From IMG/VR virus record IMGVR_UViG_3300017991_002758, positions 1 through 64,000 of that record: a stretch of 64,000 nt of DNA. The stretch is one strand, 5' to 3'. Origin of the DNA: a virus. Below are positions 3,733 through 23,479 of the stretch, in pieces. The first letter of the stretch is position 1. Each line of letters opens with the position of its first letter. Both the position numbers and the translations under genes were made by a program. The notes beneath the pieces were generated by a model. It did no database searches. It had not been told where the DNA came from and saw nothing but the letters and a program-made list of their open reading frames with translations.

Positions 3733-4311
3733 ATGACTGCGCCTCCGATCTGCCCATACTGCAACAACGAAGCCGAGCTCGTTGACAGCATCGAAGTCTA
3801 CGGCGTTAGCCACGGCAACATTTGGCTTTGCCGTCCATGCGAAGCCTACGTGGGCGTTCACCGCAATGACGATCTAAACAGGCCGCTCGGAACGCTGGCC
3901 AACGCGCAGCTCCGGGAATGGCGCCGGGCGGCGCACTCAGTTCTGGATCCACTTTGGCGGAAGAAGATCAGAAAGGAAGGCTGTTCGAAGGCTGAGGCCT
4001 GGCGCGCTGGTTACGAATGGCTTTCCAAGCAGATGGGCATTCCATTTGAGCGATGCCACATAGGGATGTTTGGCCTCGAGGAATGTCAAACGGTAGTACG
4101 GATCTGTTCGCCGGCGAACTTGCGAATACTCAGGCTTGCGAAGGAAGCCGGGTTACCACACGACACCAGTGGACCTGATGGTGAAGAAGGAGATCCATGT
4201 CGGTGTTGGGTCGAGCCCGTGGATGGCGAACTGATGATCTTCACAACCATAGATTCGCGAACGCCAGAAATATGCAGCAAAGCAGCCGGCACGATTATTA
4301 AGTGCCGTTGA
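3733..4311 (+). CDS. DUF3268-family zinc-finger protein
   Basis: CPYC...WLCRPCEAYVGVH...LGTLAN..LR..R..AH...DPLW...CHIGMF. Confidence 0.8.
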   Translation: MTAPPICPYCNNEAELVDSIEVYGVSHGNIWLCRPCEAYVGVHRNDDLNRPLGTLANAQLREWRRAAHSVLDPLWRKKIRKEGCSKAEAWRAGYEWLSKQMGIPFERCHIGMFGLEECQTVVRICSPANLRILRLAKEAGLPHDTSGPDGEEGDPCRCWVEPVDGELMIFTTIDSRTPEICSKAAGTIIKCR

Positions 4312-4327
4312 GAAGGAGAGGACATCA

Positions 4328-4624
4328 ATGAATCCAGATACCAACAGACTTGAAATGCTGAAGCTCGCATCTGACTCTGGAAGCGAAGCCGAGGAAAAAC
4401 TTCTGGATCTAATAAATCAGCAGAAGAAAGGCGAGTTTCACTACGATCTGGTCAGGCCTAACGGCAAGCCGGTTCCGAAACACTGGTCGATCTTCCGGAT
4501 CGGTGAGCAGGTCGTAGTTAAGGACTACACGTTCAAGGTCGCGTACGTCAATGAATCTGGACTTCTACTGGAGCCAGTTGGGCCAGTAATTATCGGAGAG
4601 AAGAAAGGAGAGGCAAATGGATAA
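4328..4624 (+). CDS. hypothetical protein
   Basis: ORF with RBS in a tightly packed operon. Confidence 0.6.
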   Translation: MNPDTNRLEMLKLASDSGSEAEEKLLDLINQQKKGEFHYDLVRPNGKPVPKHWSIFRIGEQVVVKDYTFKVAYVNESGLLLEPVGPVIIGEKKGEANG

Positions 4625-5111
4625 AAGTAAAAAAACTCCAGCAATTAGCGTAGCTCAATTACGAGAAGTGTTGGATGAATATGATGACGACACCATGATC
4701 TTGCCCCAGGTAGTTTCCCGGGACGGCATGCAGGCCTGGAACATGATGCTCGATGCCGCGGTGCCATTTGGGAAAGAATGGGGTGAGGGATCTTTGCTGC
4801 TTCAGATGTCGCATCCCGAGTTGGACCAGTTGCCCAAGGTCGAAAAGGTTGAGGCCCAGCGCATGGGCTTCCGTGTTGGTGTCATGTTCAAGACTTTGGG
4901 CAGCGAAGTTGATGTCGAGATTACCACTGAGCACAGTCCGGAGCTCACGGAAGAAGGTAAACTCCTGGCACTAATGCTTGGGGTTCAACGACAGGCTACG
5001 AAGTTGGGCAAAAGCGGAGACGAGGCCGTTGCCGAACTGAAGAAAACATTCGCCCAGGCGACAATAACAGCGTACATGCGAACATTGGTCGCCGGGCAAA
5101 AACCGAATTAA
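4617..5111 (+). CDS. hypothetical protein
   Basis: ORF with GGAG RBS overlapping the previous gene. Confidence 0.6.
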   Translation: MDKSKKTPAISVAQLREVLDEYDDDTMILPQVVSRDGMQAWNMMLDAAVPFGKEWGEGSLLLQMSHPELDQLPKVEKVEAQRMGFRVGVMFKTLGSEVDVEITTEHSPELTEEGKLLALMLGVQRQATKLGKSGDEAVAELKKTFAQATITAYMRTLVAGQKPN

Positions 5112-7243: not shown

Positions 7244-7360
7244 GCGCGGGTGGCGGAATGGCAGACGTGCTCCCAGGTTAGGGGAGTGCCGGGAAATAAG
7301 CAAACCTCTTCGGGAGGACCGAATACCCGGCGATTGCAGGTTCGAGTCCTGCGCCGCGCA
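7244..7360 (+). ncRNA. tRNA-like element (Leu/Ser-type D arm, canonical T arm, ~50-nt variable region, aberrant anticodon loop)
   Basis: GCGCGG/CCGCGC acceptor stem; TGGCGGAATGGCAGACG D arm; CTCCC/GGGAG stem with loop AGGTTAG; GCAGG-TTCGAGT-CCTGC T arm; no encoded CCA. Confidence 0.7.
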
Positions 7361-16042: not shown

Positions 16043-16357
16043 ATGGCATTTTACGAGCAACGGAATATAGATCTGCCGCTCAACCCAGCGGGAGATACAA
16101 TGGTGGTAGGTGCTGGCGCCGAGATGAACATAGGCCAGATGTCGGACAAAGGGTACGATTACCTCAAAGGCGCCGCGGCCGCCTTTACTGCGGTGCTGGA
16201 AGGTAGCGTTACAGGCCTCCAATGGACAACCATTACAACTCTGGCCGCCAGTGGACAGGGTTCCGTTGCCGCGCAGTACAATTACGTACGGGTGAATTGC
16301 TCAGTACAGGGCGCGCTCGACAATACGGTGCTGAAGATAGCCGGCAAGGTTCTGTAA
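16043..16357 (+). CDS. hypothetical protein
   Basis: AAGGAGG RBS; TAATG overlap with portal. Confidence 0.65.
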   Translation: MAFYEQRNIDLPLNPAGDTMVVGAGAEMNIGQMSDKGYDYLKGAAAAFTAVLEGSVTGLQWTTITTLAASGQGSVAAQYNYVRVNCSVQGALDNTVLKIAGKVL

Positions 16358-18342
16358 TGGCATCGCCTAAAAAGAAAAAGAGAGCCTCGCCACCGGCCAA
16401 AAAAGATGAGCGGCCAGAGCTTTCGCTGCGTCAGATCCTGGCCAAGGCCTCGGTTCTGACCGGCCGGGACGTAGAGGAATCAGCGGCCATCGCCAGGATG
16501 GAAAATACGCTGCACCTTTACAGCGAGGAGGGCGCAGTCGACCCACCGTACGATCCGGAGTCGCTGCTGAATTACATCGAGCTGACGCCGCACTTGAAAC
16601 CCTGCATTGCCTCTTACCAGTTGAACATCGAGGGTTACGGATACCAGCCGGTGCCATTGGTTCCCTGGATGGAGGATCTGGATTCCGACGAGGCCACGGA
16701 AGCGATCCGCGACGCGCTGCAGATCGAACGCTGGGTCGATGAGGAAGAGGCGGCGCTCGAGGCCGGCACTCAAGAGAAGCAGGAGGAAGGCGATGAGCCT
16801 ATCGAAGAGCCAGAGCCCGAAGGTGAACCCGAAGGCCCAGGCGAAGAGGGCACGCCGGTCGACGAGGACGAGGACGGCGAGATCACTGAAGAGGAAATAG
16901 CCGAGGTCAAAGAGGATCTGGCCACCAAGTTGCGCCGGGAGCAATTTCTGTTCGAGGCCTTCTTCAAGAACTGCTGCTCGACCATGAGCTTTACCAAACT
17001 CAGGCGCATTACCCGCGGGGATATCGAAGGCAATGGCTGGGGTGCGTGGGAGATGTTGCGCGATGGTTTCGGCCGGCTGAAGCGACTGAACTACATTCCG
17101 GGCTACACCGTGCGACCGCTGAAGAACGAGGGCGAGCTGGTGGAAGTCACAGAGCCCGACCCAGTGACGCCACTTTCCGAAGGGCGCGAGGTAATGGTTC
17201 AACGGCGCTTTACCCGGTTCGTTCAAATCGTCGGCGACAAGAAGGTATTCTTCAAGTCTCCCAAAGATCCTCGGGTAATCAGCCGCACAACGGGCAAGGT
17301 CTACACAACAGTGGCCGAGATGCGGCGCCCAAAGGACAAAGGCGGCGAAGGCCCAGAGGCCAAGGAAGCCAACGAGCTCATCTACATCTCGCTGCATGAT
17401 GCTCGAACGCCATGTCCACCTCCGCGCTGGATTGGAAACTTGTTGGCCGTGCTTGGTGTGCGCGAGGCTGACGAGTCCAATTACTTCTACCTGGACAGTA
17501 ACGCCATCCCACCCGGCATCCTGTTCGTCGCCGGCGGAAAAGTATCACGCGACATGAAGGACCGACTAGAGCAGCGCATGACGGCAGAGCTTAGTGGTGC
17601 GAAAAACAACCACAAGATCCTGGTGGTGGAAGCCACGCCGATGAAATTGAAAGGCGAGGATCGAACGCTGCTGCCGTCCATGCAATACGAGTCGCTGAGG
17701 GATTCACAGCAAAACGATGCGACGTTCACCACATTCGATGAGCGGTCAGCCGACAGGATCGGCGCGTCGTTCCGCTTGCCGCCAATGCTCCGTGGTTACA
17801 CGCCAAAGAACTTGAACCGGGCAACGGCGATGGCCGCGCTGTCATTCGCCGAGAGTCAGGTATTCGAGCCAGAGCGCGAGGATATTGACTGGGTAGTGAA
17901 CCACCACATACTGCCCGAGATTGGCGTTACGCTGTACCGCTTCCGCTCCAATTCACCACCAACACGGTCGCCGGAGGAAATTGCCGAGCTGATCAAGGTA
18001 GCCGCTCCCCACGGAGGCCTGCTGCCGTACGAGATCCGCGGCCTGCTTTCCGACGCATTGAACCGCACGCTCACGAAGGTTGAAGAGGAATGGTCACGTT
18101 GGCCAATGCCAATGACGCTGGCCGGGATCGGTGAAGGCGGAAGCGTGATGCCCGGCGGAGAAGAAGGAGAGCCCGAGTCTATGGCGATGGTGGTGCGAAA
18201 CCTAGAGGCACTGCGCCAGAGAGTTGAAGCAATACTGACCCAGGAGTTGCGCGAAGCCGGTATGGACATGGACGTCAAGACGTCGTGGCTTGACGCCAGC
18301 GATCTCGAAGCCGAAGAAGGTGGCGAAGAAGATGAAGATTAG
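16357..18342 (+). CDS. portal protein (PBSX-like) with acidic insertion
   Basis: PPYDP..L, GNGWGAWEMLRD, NAIPPGIL, FRLPP.LRG, NRATA..A....E.QVFEPER; position after TerL. Confidence 0.9.
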   Translation: MASPKKKKRASPPAKKDERPELSLRQILAKASVLTGRDVEESAAIARMENTLHLYSEEGAVDPPYDPESLLNYIELTPHLKPCIASYQLNIEGYGYQPVPLVPWMEDLDSDEATEAIRDALQIERWVDEEEAALEAGTQEKQEEGDEPIEEPEPEGEPEGPGEEGTPVDEDEDGEITEEEIAEVKEDLATKLRREQFLFEAFFKNCCSTMSFTKLRRITRGDIEGNGWGAWEMLRDGFGRLKRLNYIPGYTVRPLKNEGELVEVTEPDPVTPLSEGREVMVQRRFTRFVQIVGDKKVFFKSPKDPRVISRTTGKVYTTVAEMRRPKDKGGEGPEAKEANELIYISLHDARTPCPPPRWIGNLLAVLGVREADESNYFYLDSNAIPPGILFVAGGKVSRDMKDRLEQRMTAELSGAKNNHKILVVEATPMKLKGEDRTLLPSMQYESLRDSQQNDATFTTFDERSADRIGASFRLPPMLRGYTPKNLNRATAMAALSFAESQVFEPEREDIDWVVNHHILPEIGVTLYRFRSNSPPTRSPEEIAELIKVAAPHGGLLPYEIRGLLSDALNRTLTKVEEEWSRWPMPMTLAGIGEGGSVMPGGEEGEPESMAMVVRNLEALRQRVEAILTQELREAGMDMDVKTSWLDASDLEAEEGGEEDED

Positions 18343-19116: not shown

Positions 19117-19512
19117 ATGGAATGGTACGATGGGAATTATGCCGTGCTGCCCGACGTTAACGAGCTGAGCCAGCGTCCGCACATCGGAAGGGGAGACATA
19201 GTGAAGCATAAGAGCGGCGCCATCATTCTGAGATGTCCGGCATGCGGCGCTGTTCAATTTGCTCGAGCACAGATCCTGAATTCCGATAAGGCGCCCACTC
19301 TAAGTCAGCCTGTTCATTGCGGTAGTGGTCATTGTCAGAAATGTGCCATCTGGTTCACGATCAAGAACGGCCGAGCGGAAAAGACGAAGGAACCGAAACC
19401 GGCCAAGGTTGAGCTCTCCAATAAACTCAAGGCCGCCGGCGTCGGCCCGGCCCGAGTTGAAAAAGATCCCAAGGTGAAACCGCGATTCAAACTGAAGGAC
19501 CTGAATAGGTGA
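19117..19512 (+). CDS. zinc-ribbon hypothetical protein
   Basis: AGGAGG RBS; CPAC...C...HCQKC. Confidence 0.6.
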   Translation: MEWYDGNYAVLPDVNELSQRPHIGRGDIVKHKSGAIILRCPACGAVQFARAQILNSDKAPTLSQPVHCGSGHCQKCAIWFTIKNGRAEKTKEPKPAKVELSNKLKAAGVGPARVEKDPKVKPRFKLKDLNR

Positions 19513-22500
19513 TAGCAGCGTATTCACAGCCGGCCGAAGGCTTCATGTCGCTGTGGCCGGTGACCGACCTGGGGAATGACCCGACACTTGCGTTCTGGAA
19601 GGCCGGAATACGTTCCTCGCAGGCCGGCGTGCCCATCGCCAAGGGCATGGCCCTGTTAATACTGGACGGCGCGAGGCCTCGTGCTGTGAGGCTTCAGGCC
19701 CGGGACCTGGCGGAAGCCCGGATGTTGGCGGTCAAGGCCTCGGTGGGCCACGAGGTAGTGCTGCTAAACGCCGTCGCCCAGGGCAAGCAAACCGTCTTCC
19801 GCCGGCGGGAGATTATCCGGCCCATGTCCGTTGCGGCCGCCTCCAAGGACGACAGCCTGTCCCTCGTTGGTCCTAACGGAGTGTTGGTGGAAAAGGCATT
19901 GTCGCCGTTCGATCCCAAGGATCAGCGCATCATTGCCAACAGACTCGCAAGTCAGATTGGGTACTACGAAAAGCTCGCGCTGGGCCCGAAGTTGGACAAG
20001 TGGATGGAAAGCCTGGACCGCAACTGGTCGAAGTTGAACGCCAACCAGATTTCGCGCGCCATCTCCCAGGCCCGGACTCAATTACGAAAGCTCATGGGCT
20101 CGAGCGCCAACAAGCTCATGCCAATGTGGAAACAGAAGATTGAGCTGACGCTGACTGGTGTGGTACGCGGCACAAAGAAAATTGTGCGCGCTAACTTCTT
20201 GCCGCAGATAGGCCAGTCGTTGAGCCAACCAGACCTTACCGCGATCAATAACATCACCAACCAACAGGGATTCTGGCTCAGGAATTCCGCCGGCGTGCGC
20301 GCCGATCATTTAACCAAGCAAGGTCAGACAATTATCAACGACGGTCTGAAGAAAGGCCTGGGCCGCGAGCAAATCGCCAGGGCGATAAGAGCAGGAGTGC
20401 CGGCCGCATGGCAGAAGTACGGCATGAATTATTTCAAGACGCTGTCTTCTGTTTCCGTGAGTCGCGCAAGGTCGTATTCTGAGGTTTCAGGCTACGTTGA
20501 AGCCGGCATTGAATCGCTGGAAATTCAGGCTGTGCTCGATGAGCGCACCACTGAAATATGCCGATGCCTGGACGGGCAGATCATTGAAACCCATCTGGTG
20601 AGTCAGCAGATAACAGGCACGATGAATTTGGCCTCGCCGGAAGACATCAGGGACGCCTCGCCATTCTTGAAGGTGGTGAATCGTGATGTGAAGGGCGACA
20701 CGATCAGGTCTATAGTAACGGCGAACAATAATAAACCCATCGCCGACATCACGCGATCTGGAATGGGCCGTGTAGATGACCGTGGTCAATTCAGCAGGTA
20801 CATGGCGAACAACCAGTTGCCCAACGAGAATATCGGTCCGCCACCGTACCATCATTTGTGAAGGTCATGGACGGTGCCGGTGGCATCGACGTCCCAAGTC
20901 CCGCGCAACACGGTTCCCCTGGCGGAGGGCAGCACACCAGTTCCTCCGCGGCCGATTAAACCAGGAGGTAGAATACTGCCAGGCGTAGGTCCGAGGCCTC
21001 AGTCATTGTCGAGAGCCCCGACGACGACCAATCCTGTCATGGTAGGCGACCCGGATCTCATTGAACGCTACCCATTCAGCGGCGACTTCTTCGATCCGCG
21101 GCCGTTGCCGAAGGTTCGATTGCCCAAAGGCAGAATGAATATGGGTGCTGTTTATCAGCGGTTCTATTTCGATCCCAAGAGTGGATATATCCGCGCTGGT
21201 GGCAATATCAGTAACGTCACATTGCCCAAAGATAAACTATTGCCCCCCACTTCCAATCTCACAAAGGAGCTCGCGCTTACTTCCGATACTTCCGGCGTTG
21301 CCATGCACGTTGAAAAGCTTGACGCTCAAACATTGAAGGACATTGTTCTTGCAGAATGGAAGCAGCCGGCGGCGCGCCGGGTATATCATATTCAGGCGAA
21401 TCTCACTGGCTCGGAGCAGTACATAAAATTCAACCACGATATGAAGGCCAACTCCAAACGATGGGAGAGCTGGTTGCGTTTGCGCTGCAATGATTCAAAT
21501 AGCATTGCCAATGCCCTGGCGAATCTTGAGAAAAAAGGGTTCATCCAAATGACGAAGGACCCGCAGGCAGCAACCTTCGGTTCACCTGGGCCCAAGATGC
21601 CTCGTCTTAAAAAACCAATACCCGGTGAGCCCATAAAGCCCAAGCCGGTGAAAGGTCCGAAGGTAATTCCAAAACCAAAGCCCACAGTCACCGAACCTAA
21701 AATTCCAGGGCAACCGCCAGAGCCAAAGCCCAAACCTAAACGGAAGCCGAAGCCGAAGCCGAAGCCGAAGCCAAAAGATCCGTACGCACAATATAAATAC
21801 GTGCGCAGCGAAAGGATGACCAAACAAATCGAAACGCGGATCAAGTTGGAAACTGCAAAGATAAAAGATGCAATGGCGGCAGAAGCCAGAGCCCTGGGCA
21901 AAGAGGCATTAGACAGTAGAGAACAAGCAGTTTTTTTGCGTAAATACTGCGCCCAGGCAACAGGCGAAGCGAAATTAACTGAAAAAGAGATCTCCAAGTT
22001 CACTAAAAAGATGACAGTGGCCGATAAGAAAGTACTCACGGATACTGTAAAGGGGAAAATTGAAGGGAGTTGGTCTGGAGTTTATTATGGTAGTACAACT
22101 AATCCCCAAATCACTTTGATGCCACAGCGAGAGCTAAACGAATTGTACCGCGATATGTCTTCTCATTTGAGCCCCAAGGTTTGGCAGCATGCAAAGAAAT
22201 ATGGATTGCCACGTGTTCATTGGGTCGATGGCCTACAGAGTGGTGCATATTATCAAGAAGCCAACAATACCATTGTGCTGCCGAGGGGAACCTCGTGGAA
22301 TAAAATGCAGGCAATTTTCAGACATGAATTTGGTCATTTCATAGACCGCCTGGGCTACAACAACATGGCCATAGATGTCGCCAGGCGGAGATGGGCAACC
22401 AGTGGCAGACTTACCAGATCGAAAGGTGGGTGGTCTTATTTAAAAGGCCTGTGGTATGACGACTATATGGGCAGGGTCTATCTTTATGAAAATGGAGCAC

Positions 22501-22676
22501 GGTATGTTAACAGAGGCGAGATACATAGCATGCTGAATGAGCTTTTTGCCGAAGCTCCGTATCGTTTTGGTGTTAGAAACAGCAAGGCACTTTATGCACT
22601 TAAGACCCAGTGGGAAACCAATCCGGAATCAATCGCACACTGGGTTGCATGGGCAAATGGAGCATATATTCCATGA
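19509..22676 (+). CDS. MuF/gp7-like head morphogenesis protein with C-terminal zincin domain; in-frame TGA at 20859-20861 (candidate selenocysteine)
   Basis: AVLDERTTEIC..LDG then PPYHHL[TGA]RSWTVP; ORFs 19509-20861 and 20874-22676 share one frame; Pro/Lys linker; GAYYQ...TIVL...RHEFGHFID. Confidence 0.8.
20862..20894 (+). promoter_or_regulatory. candidate bacterial SECIS hairpin
   Basis: GGACG-GTGCC[GGT]GGCAT-(CGA bulge)-CGTCC at 20869-20894; G-starting loop 17 nt after the TGA. Confidence 0.65.
21720..21775 (+). repeat. Lys-Pro dipeptide repeat (AAGCCG units)
   Basis: KPKPKRKPKPKPKPKPK linker in the MuF extension. Confidence 0.8.
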
Positions 22677-23056
22677 TAGAAAAACAATTTAGTTGGCAGG
22701 GGTTAGGAAGGATGAACATAGTCACCAGACAGAATGAACATGTGGCAACTTTCGAATTCAAGGGAACGGTTGCCACCGGAAAAGGCGAATGGACCTGGTT
22801 CAAGGATGATCAGGTCAGGAAAAAAATAGAGAATGCGATTACAGCGGGAAAAGAAAGGTTGGGGAATTTGGAGGTCAGTGACATGGTCAATAATGCTGTA
22901 AAAGTTAAAGTGTGGAAGGGGTTCTCAGGCATGTACGGTGGGCTCATCAACTCATTGCCCACCTTCGGTTTAGACGTGGACAGGGATACAATACAATGGC
23001 CCGGAGGGATACTTGAAAACGGAGGAAAGATTGACGACGAGCTAGGTCTCGAATAA
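22673..23056 (+). CDS. putative immunity protein for the MuF C-terminal domain
   Basis: Small, visibly AT-richer ORF with ATGA overlap on the toxin stop; positional inference. Confidence 0.5.
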   Translation: MIEKQFSWQGLGRMNIVTRQNEHVATFEFKGTVATGKGEWTWFKDDQVRKKIENAITAGKERLGNLEVSDMVNNAVKVKVWKGFSGMYGGLINSLPTFGLDVDRDTIQWPGGILENGGKIDDELGLE

Positions 23057-23075
23057 AATAGTCAATATGTCCGAG

Positions 23076-23105
23076 TTGACAGGGGAGTAACCATGGGGTT
23101 ATGTT
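23076..23105 (+). promoter_or_regulatory. sigma70-like promoter for head genes
   Basis: TTGACA-N18-TATGTT in intergenic DNA. Confidence 0.5.
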
Positions 23106-23113
23106 TATAAAAA

Positions 23114-23479
23114 ATGGAAGTCCTAATCCCGAATAGCTTTTCGGCGACGAAAACACCGTTTGCAGATCTGGTTACCAATCAGAAGGATCTCCTTCGCGTT
23201 TTCAGATTATTCGAGCGTGAGTTGAAAAATTCATTCGCAGAGGATGAGCGCCGAATGGGCCGGGCCTTCCGGGAAAGGGTGCAGACGCAGGCAGAGTTGA
23301 AGCGACGTTCCGAAATAATGGCGCGTTGGTTCAGAGTGTTTCGTGGTGACCTTGGATATTCCATATCGCAATGCGAAATGGAAATAGGCAAGGCACTTCG
23401 ATCAGAACTTGACGGTACACTTTTCACGCCGGTTGCGGCCTTGAGGTCGTATGGCGTGCCGGAAGGAGAACCCAGATGA
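23114..23479 (+). CDS. hypothetical protein
   Basis: ORF with ATGA overlap to the next gene. Confidence 0.6.
   Translation: MEVLIPNSFSATKTPFADLVTNQKDLLRVFRLFERELKNSFAEDERRMGRAFRERVQTQAELKRRSEIMARWFRVFRGDLGYSISQCEMEIGKALRSELDGTLFTPVAALRSYGVPEGEPR

Follow-up and report, generated by a model that had tools for sequence, protein, structure and literature searches.

A UGA codon at the invariant cysteine of a phage MuF head protein as a candidate selenocysteine codon ahead of a zincin-like tail

The locus described here raises the question of whether a UGA codon in the middle of a phage gene ends a head protein or is read as an amino acid. It lies in the window, the first 64 kb (64,000 nucleotides) of the 99,601-bp virus record IMGVR_UViG_3300017991_002758 in IMG/VR, the completeness of which is ~100% according to CheckV. 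There, an open reading frame (ORF) for a MuF, or SPP1 gp7-type, head-morphogenesis protein (positions 19509 to 20861, plus strand) terminates with the residues PPYHHL and a TGA, and the same frame then stays open for 604 further codons to a second TGA at 22674 to 22676. Public gene callers split this region into ORFs of 450 and 598 amino acids (aa). Our results indicate that positions 19509 to 22676 are best read as one gene of ~1,055 codons in one frame, with a single internal TGA. From comparative sequence analysis, we judge it likely that this UGA is decoded as selenocysteine (Sec), and the best explanation of the locus as a whole, a single virion-protein gene with Sec at the UGA and a zincin-type metallopeptidase tail, is on balance probable.

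The 450 codons that precede the UGA (19509 to 20858) encode the MuF domain. They match phrog_13868 (E = 1.7e-33), and this match extends across the UGA to residue 458; the matches to PF04233 (24.6 bits; cutoff, 29.6) and TIGR01641 (28.8 bits; cutoff, 39.65) are both under their cutoffs. Homologues with 40 to 46% identity bear PF04233 and the name SPP1 gp7 family, and the gene lies 3′ of the portal gene within the head module, as expected for this family. The C..R and PPxHxxCR motifs of the MuF domain are invariant in the alignment, with the window having a UGA for the second cysteine. The structural model of the MuF domain gave no match at an E value of ≤0.001 in Foldseek and no informative match in VIA, and sequence searches of the PDB with profiles of this domain, of the tail, and of the small ORF behind the tail were all negative.

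The UGA (20859 to 20861) stands in the column of an invariant cysteine within an H-x-x-C-R motif. A profile scan of IMG/VR yielded ~30 loci with full-length relatives (a locus scan with a single protein yielded none), and in all 22 of the distinct DNA sequences examined, TGC or TGT is found at the UGA column and the frame continues for 257 to 814 codons. The closest relatives are 51 to 55% identical and have window-like tails of ~600 codons. Both the cysteine and the arginine that follows it are invariant in the 32 other aligned sequences, and the arginine is also kept in the window (n = 33). Just past the UGA, where the gene continues with R-S-W-T-V-P into a Pro-rich linker (20862 to 21059), the codons of the three UGA lineages for which DNA is available encode the family consensus and differ synonymously from those of the cysteine-containing relatives, for example, AGG versus CGG for Arg and TCG versus TCT for Ser. 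In the tail, the ratio of nonsynonymous to synonymous substitution rates (dN/dS) is 0.23, at a dS of ~1.2, between L062, a relative with TGA, and L008, a relative with TGT. The conserved coding after the UGA, the synonymous differences, and the low tail dN/dS together lead us to conclude that the downstream sequence is translated as a continuation of MuF and that the gene descends from a single ORF. The window has what is seen in a gene for a bacterial selenoprotein, namely, an in-frame UGA that is aligned with cysteine and has homology on both sides of it.

A stop at this column is a recurrent feature of the family. An initial protein search returned 4 relatives of 444 to 445 aa (40 to 46% identity), all ending in PPYHHL. 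Among the best 150 matches of a phmmer search, which uses no word index, against 1.84 billion cluster representatives, 12 representatives end exactly before the cysteine column (P0002, P0003, P0004, P0046, P0055, P0059, P0066, and P0075 and the more distant P0096, P0107, P0120, and P0160), and cluster look-ups added the stop forms P0025, P0026, and P0029/P0008. Cysteine is present in 145 of all collected proteins, and the other short ones are cut only at contig ends. In a tree built from 89 MuF heads, 7 clades have the stop state, which requires 8 changes, all of them forced by well-supported branches, and a smaller IQ-TREE run agrees with this result. The stop is TGA in three of the three lineages for which DNA is available, which are the window, L059 (= L061) together with L060, and L062. 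A TGA-specific DNA pattern found no match in genome contigs, and a looser pattern found no new viral lineage.

The switch can be followed between very close relatives. L008 (IMGVR_UViG_3300024433_001256), which has TGT, is ~98 to 99% identical in its MuF head to the stop forms P0004 and P0026, and its 736-aa cysteine form falls into one 90% cluster with the 444-aa P0004. This is a natural Cys/UGA polymorphism, with the stop codon of P0004 and P0026 being seen as a protein end only. A nonsense mutation, an assembly error, or a decaying gene would require only the single base change from TGY to TGA, and L008 and P0004 do differ only there. However, the 450-aa form of the window is found on 11 contigs from three sources (JGI, Logan, and ENA), complete genomes carry the stop (the L060 record is a complete 98-kb genome with terminal repeats), the 604 codons past the UGA are open with all family motifs intact, and the stop recurs in at least seven clades, and we regard such a lesion as very improbable.

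Stop codon recoding occurs in phages and gives a precedent for a genome-wide reassignment of TGA (code 4 or 25, for example), whether by the phage or by the host. In this genome, however, TGA ends 38 of the 91 plus-strand ORFs, including this very gene, and the residue aligned with the internal TGA is Cys, not Trp or Gly. Because TGA is the commonest ordinary stop and because no other TGA in the genome connects long open frames that show conserved coding both before and after it, genome-wide recoding is excluded for practical purposes.

The protein ends show a further regularity. Long-type MuF proteins that stop at the cysteine column always have Leu as their last residue, in HHL or HEL (P0002 to P0006, P0025, P0026, P0029, P0046, P0055, P0059, P0066, and P0075), and in the cysteine forms the position before the cysteine is taken by L, I, E, G, N, F, S, or Q; Leu before the stop may be a codon-context requirement for recoding. 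The distant forms P0096 (…PPAHGF), P0107 (…PPWHGR), P0120 (…PPYHPS), and P0160 (…PPFHPN) also end just before the conserved cysteine, and on the basis of these protein ends the Sec/Cys switch may extend beyond this phage group.

Directly after the UGA lies a hairpin that resembles a Sec insertion sequence (SECIS). Its 7-bp stem with a GGU triloop (CGGUGCC-GGU-GGCAUCG, 20872 to 20888; an alternative register with a lower stem spans 20869 to 20894) starts 10 nucleotides (nt) past the UGA, and the loop is reached 17 nt past it. At this offset, L059, an independent UGA lineage, reads CUGUUCC-GGU-GGAACAG, and RNAalifold recovers a stem common to the two with 2 compensatory pairs (G-C to U-A) and one change from G-U to G-C. 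The cysteine relatives (n = 22) form 0 to 2 bp at this position, even where their Pro-Val codons give GGU, and the chance of ≥7 bp there is ~0.001. The 3′ arm is encoded by lineage-specific residues, VAST in the window and VEQ in L059, where relatives have VTTT or similar, and the combination of TGA, stem, and GGU inside long open frames is found at 1 site in the whole genome. Both the window and L059 have a downstream hairpin with a G-containing apical loop, and its layout is that of the SaoC SECIS, the type expected in Gram-positive species, in which the UGA is followed after 10 nt by a 7-bp stem with a GGU loop (Haft and Gwadz, bioRxiv 10.1101/2022.07.06.499078). In a scan of the whole window against Rfam, no family was found.

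The tail might also be reached without Sec, either because a leaky UGA stop sets a fixed ratio of short to long product, for which the A1 read-through protein of phage Q-beta is a precedent, or because translation restarts at GTG 20874 or 20880. Termination at UGA is weak when the next base is A or C; GTG codons lie 12 to 21 nt past the UGA in all three UGA lineages; gene callers give the tail as a separate 598-aa ORF; and the Sec machinery could not be shown. On the other hand, a leaky stop leaves unexplained why at least seven lineages have chosen the one invariant cysteine codon, when the neighboring Tyr447, Leu450, Ser453, and Trp454 codons, each one step from a stop, were available but were never used as a stop, and when a read-through that inserts Trp at Trp454 would restore the wild type. 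It likewise does not explain the hairpin with compensatory changes that is common to the window and L059. Also against these routes, the codons between the UGA and the GTGs keep family residues including the invariant Arg. GTG 20874 itself lies inside the hairpin (20869 to 20894), as the first-pass annotation of this DNA had noted. We therefore consider these routes unlikely, and most of the probability that does not fall to Sec goes to them, as read-through without Sec or as reinitiation.

Past the UGA, the protein consists of a Pro-rich stretch (residues 452 to 520; 20% Pro), a middle domain (21060 to 21575), a P/K-rich linker (21576 to 21776, residues 690 to 760; 35% Pro, 27% Lys) with a (KP)n run at 21744 to 21776, and a helical region followed by a gluzincin-like zincin domain (21777 to 22673). 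In this domain, GAYYQ (22242) and NTIVL (22266) both lie 5′ of the HEFGH motif (22323 to 22337). The Pro-rich region, the (KP)n linker, and the domain with these three motifs had all been described in the first-pass annotation and are all present; what it omitted is the middle domain of ~170 residues, which separates the Pro-rich region from the (KP)n linker, is without a Pfam or PHROG match, and is homologous to the entire 257-aa tail of the relative L010 (BLASTP E = 5e-11). A TonB-like NCBIfam match in the P/K-rich linker is weak and compositional only.

Several lines of evidence place the C-terminal domain among the zincins. When the tail was scanned alone, residues 873 to 944 matched DUF6782, a putative metallopeptidase family in Pfam, with 28.3 bits (cutoff, 27). 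An AlphaFold2 model of residues 757 to 1055, built with 13 homologues, is confident (predicted local distance difference test score [pLDDT], 86; predicted template modeling score [pTM], 0.87). Foldseek returned weak zincin matches only (ZMPSTE24, M32, and selecase), none at an E value of ≤0.001, and an exhaustive VIA search was headed by the catalytic domain of anthrax lethal factor (LF; Z 8.0, 159 aligned residues, root mean square deviation of 4.2), followed by PPEP-3 (Z 7.1), PPEP-2 (Z 5.9), and further chains of LF-like or zincin type, so that zincins top both lists. The HExxH motif is found at residues 939 to 943, and a candidate third ligand, the conserved Glu1004 (22518 to 22520), lies within an [ST]E motif of the family alignment. 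With these residues, the tail is a gluzincin of M34-like shape; we claim the fold class and not the subfamily, because the Z values are moderate. With M34-type gluzincins (LF; PPEP-1, -2, and -3; and DUF6782), the domain shares HExxH with a downstream Glu and a size near that of the ~200-residue PPEPs, and it differs from them in an N-terminal helical region that is specific to this family. The tail has no sequence match to M34 or to any solved chain, and the zincin domain was not found on its own or in any protein other than MuF fusions. Since PPEPs cleave Pro-Pro bonds and two linkers of this protein are rich in Pro, self-cleavage at these linkers is, by analogy, an attractive idea.

Several observations weigh against the explanation that we favor. 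The phage genome lacks selA, selB, selD, a tRNA-Sec gene, and indeed any tRNA gene (none in 99,601 bp), so the Sec machinery would have to come from the host. In the literature searched, no precedent for a phage selenoprotein was found, the only related report being a predicted tRNA-Sec gene in Basilisk-like phages (PMC6145125). The MuF cysteine may serve as a metal ligand or in redox chemistry, and the stop codon was read from DNA in 3 lineages, the others being known from protein ends only. The minimum free energy of the hairpin is not better than that of shuffled sequences (z scores of −0.1 to −1.0 for stretches of 45 to 51 nt past the UGA), and a loose filter for bacterial-type SECIS elements passes many cysteine relatives and does not tell the UGA forms apart. 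L062 has no GGU-type hairpin; instead, a long stem of irregular pairing carries a GUGG loop 21 nt past the UGA, which is compatible with a SECIS without being diagnostic of one. Finally, the zincin fold matches are moderate, with the Z score given above for LF as the best.

An element at 7244 to 7360 resembles a tRNA with a very long variable arm, but we do not regard it as a suppressor of the UGA. ARAGORN calls no tRNA there, the sole Rfam match is to tRNA-Sec with 13.8 bits (E = 6.9; gathering score, 47), and a UCA anticodon is not visible in its loops by eye. Weak tRNA-Sec matches in the genomes of relatives are not tRNAs according to ARAGORN either.

Set beside known selenoproteins, the locus has much in common with those of bacteria. 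In FdhF and the SAO families (Haft and Gwadz, bioRxiv 10.1101/2022.07.06.499078), as here, the UGA is aligned with Cys and homology resumes past it, an intragenic hairpin presents a GGU loop 17 nt on, Sec and Cys have been switched repeatedly, and database entries are truncated at the UGA. The present case differs in that the protein is a phage-encoded virion assembly protein and not a redox or metabolic enzyme, that the Sec machinery would be borrowed from the host, and that the hairpin of L062 departs from the pattern. Among viruses, the glutathione peroxidases of the poxviruses molluscum contagiosum virus and fowlpox virus are selenoproteins (PMC8310308); they too are virus genes that use the Sec machinery of the host, and the fowlpox SECIS also lies within the coding region (PMC8310308). 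However, the poxvirus selenoenzymes are captured eukaryotic cellular enzymes, whereas the family described here is a native phage structural family with a bacterial-type SECIS. It seems fairly probable that the MuF/SPP1 gp7 proteins are an unrecognized Sec/Cys family, in which several lineages of large environmental phages have repeatedly swapped Cys for Sec and evolved their own SECIS; they would then need the host for making a virion protein and the peptidase tail fused to it.

How the UGA relates to the tail behind it is a separate question. The first-pass annotation had proposed a MuF polymorphic toxin with its cognate immunity gene, in which termination at the UGA gives an unarmed 450-aa MuF protein, read-through gives the armed form, and selenium tunes the amount of toxin packaged. 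Much about the layout speaks for such a module. Effector tails fused to MuF domains, metallopeptidases included, are a known architecture (PMC5576092 and PMC5512222); metallopeptidase domains occur in 20% of the MuF toxins, and for 89% of the toxins the next ORF is <150 aa long (PMC5576092); and the LF-like metallopeptidase is a recognized domain class of polymorphic toxins (PMC3482391). Here, a MuF domain is joined to a C-terminal zincin domain, and a small ORF of 127 aa (22673 to 23056, plus strand; motif GW.GF.G...L...LP..GL..D...WP) is coupled to it by an ATGA overlap, its ATG at 22673 overlapping the stop. Termination at the UGA would indeed leave a 450-aa MuF protein without the invariant Cys, and the zincin domain is reached only if the UGA is decoded. 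Positions 21800 to 23200, which had appeared AT-rich by eye, have a GC content of 0.45 to 0.46, versus 0.55 to 0.57 in the flanks, and most relatives have a smaller dip at this place, with the zincin domain and the small ORF 2 to 10 GC points under their flanks (in L001, L002, L005, and L006 for the matching parts); the two also co-occur in most relatives.

A comparison of C termini among relatives, which the toxin model would have expected to vary, gave a divided result. The zincin tail is conserved in close relatives, the 11 closest included (L001 to L009, L011, L013, L014, and L019, L008 being set apart by its short tail), and it is decayed, through loss of HExxH or truncation, in L017, L020, L021, and L059. 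Other tails are found in more distant relatives only, and these fall into L008/L010/L062, L012/L018/L022/L024, and L029. The three UGA lineages carry three different tails, namely, the middle and zincin domains in the window, a short tail without HExxH in L059, and a short tail without a zincin domain or HExxH in L062. For this reason, the UGA is a property of the MuF cysteine site and not a gate that evolved for the peptidase, and the proposal that it controls a toxin is not supported; most relatives make the fusion constitutively, with Cys. The selenium-set dosing of short versus long forms is a possible side effect of Sec decoding.

The second tail type, found in L012 (3446 to 5080), L018 (7288 to 9072), L022 (2932 to 4128), and L024 (862 to 2649), has an ending of the R…S-x-S/T…E-x-E kind and by eye looks ADP-ribosyltransferase-like. 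Neither the alternative tails nor the extra gene that follows the tail of L022 had a match in Pfam or PHROGs.

The small ORF does not behave as a cognate immunity gene would. Its family (~100 aa) is present in 15 relatives, directly 3′ of the MuF gene in 14 of them and mostly with the ATGA overlap; in L022, the homologue lies one gene further on, with an extra 321-aa gene (4124 to 5089) intervening after the different tail. It is kept with the tails of L017, L020, L021, and L059 that lack HExxH, and it is missing only after the short tails of L008, L010, and L062. Pfam, PHROGs, NCBIfam, and the PDB offer no match for it, and its matches in the ESM Atlas were all <0.9, which is below the meaningful level. 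What stands of the proposed module is the MuF-zincin fusion with a small coupled ORF, and what is weakened is the polymorphism, as the tail is conserved in close relatives and the small ORF fails to co-vary with it, outlasting both the loss of HExxH and a change of tail. The MuF polymorphic toxins (PMC5576092) and the virion-delivered MuF effector fusions (Iyer et al. 2017, PMC5512222) likewise have MuF downstream of the portal gene, an enzymatic C-terminal extension, and a small ORF next to it. Unlike the toxins, which are known from temperate phages (Jamet et al. 2017, PMC5576092), this module sits in a phage without temperate signs (no integrase in the genome and no prophage relative among 185,579 genomes), and its junction has a UGA at the MuF Cys that is otherwise invariant, a feature without a report in this family so far. 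Taken together, we find a selenium-tuned toxin with cognate immunity quite unlikely. Because the zincin tail and the small ORF tend to co-occur and have a common GC dip, the two are likely to be functional partners, with the small protein acting perhaps as a chaperone, an inhibitor, or a co-packaged factor.

Our findings suggest the following course of events. The late gene would give rise to a virion protein of ~1,055 residues, the N-terminal half of which is the MuF (SPP1 gp7-type) head domain. The UGA would most likely be decoded by the SelB and tRNA-Sec of the host, guided by the hairpin 10 nt downstream, and ribosomes that do not recode would release the 450-aa MuF protein without the residue of the Cys site. 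The read-through product would add the Pro-rich linker, the middle domain, the P/K linker, and the LF/PPEP-like zinc metallopeptidase domain, and by analogy with other MuF fusions, the MuF domain may carry this tail into the capsid. The peptidase might act on the fusion's own Pro-rich linkers or, after ejection, on host proteins, and the coupled small gene may provide the head module with a conserved partner protein, which might serve the tail as a chaperone or inhibit it.

If this is true, the MuF protein would be the first bacteriophage selenoprotein, selenoproteins being known from cells and two poxviruses. Phage fitness would then be coupled to the selenium metabolism of the host, and the ratio between truncated and full-length protein would depend on selenium status. 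The UGA could serve as a marker of host range and ecology, as hosts would have to be Sec competent, and it would indicate that the MuF domain, which is widespread but functionally obscure, contains a Cys of chemical importance. Gene callers would systematically split such genes, as they do here into 450-aa and 598-aa halves. The locus also cautions against labeling every MuF fusion with a small ORF as a toxin-immunity pair, and the pair formed by L008 and P0004/P0026 is well suited to an experimental comparison of Cys and UGA.

With regard to the genomic setting, no tyrosine integrase or large serine recombinase was found in the ~100% complete genome (no match to PF00589 or PF07508), and the phage is probably virulent. 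Neither a prophage nor a close relative was detected among 185,579 bacterial and archaeal genomes, and no MuF match was detected among 50,697 GenBank phages. The portal protein is ~31% identical to the portals of Rhizobium and Rhodobacter siphophages, which is too low for host inference, and a partial homologue in one Spirochaetia metagenome-assembled genome is a weak hint at a host only. Coding in the window is nearly all on the plus strand. In the head module, the portal gene (16222 to 18342) is followed by 2 small ORFs, the MuF gene, the small ORF, a 121-aa gene (23114 to 23479), and then genes for an acidic scaffold-like protein, a protease of the XkdF type, and probably the capsid protein. 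The 121-aa gene, which is without a family match, has the motif DERR.G..F…KRR..I.ARWFRV.RGDLGYS and is conserved 3′ of the MuF module irrespective of tail type, in all relatives examined.

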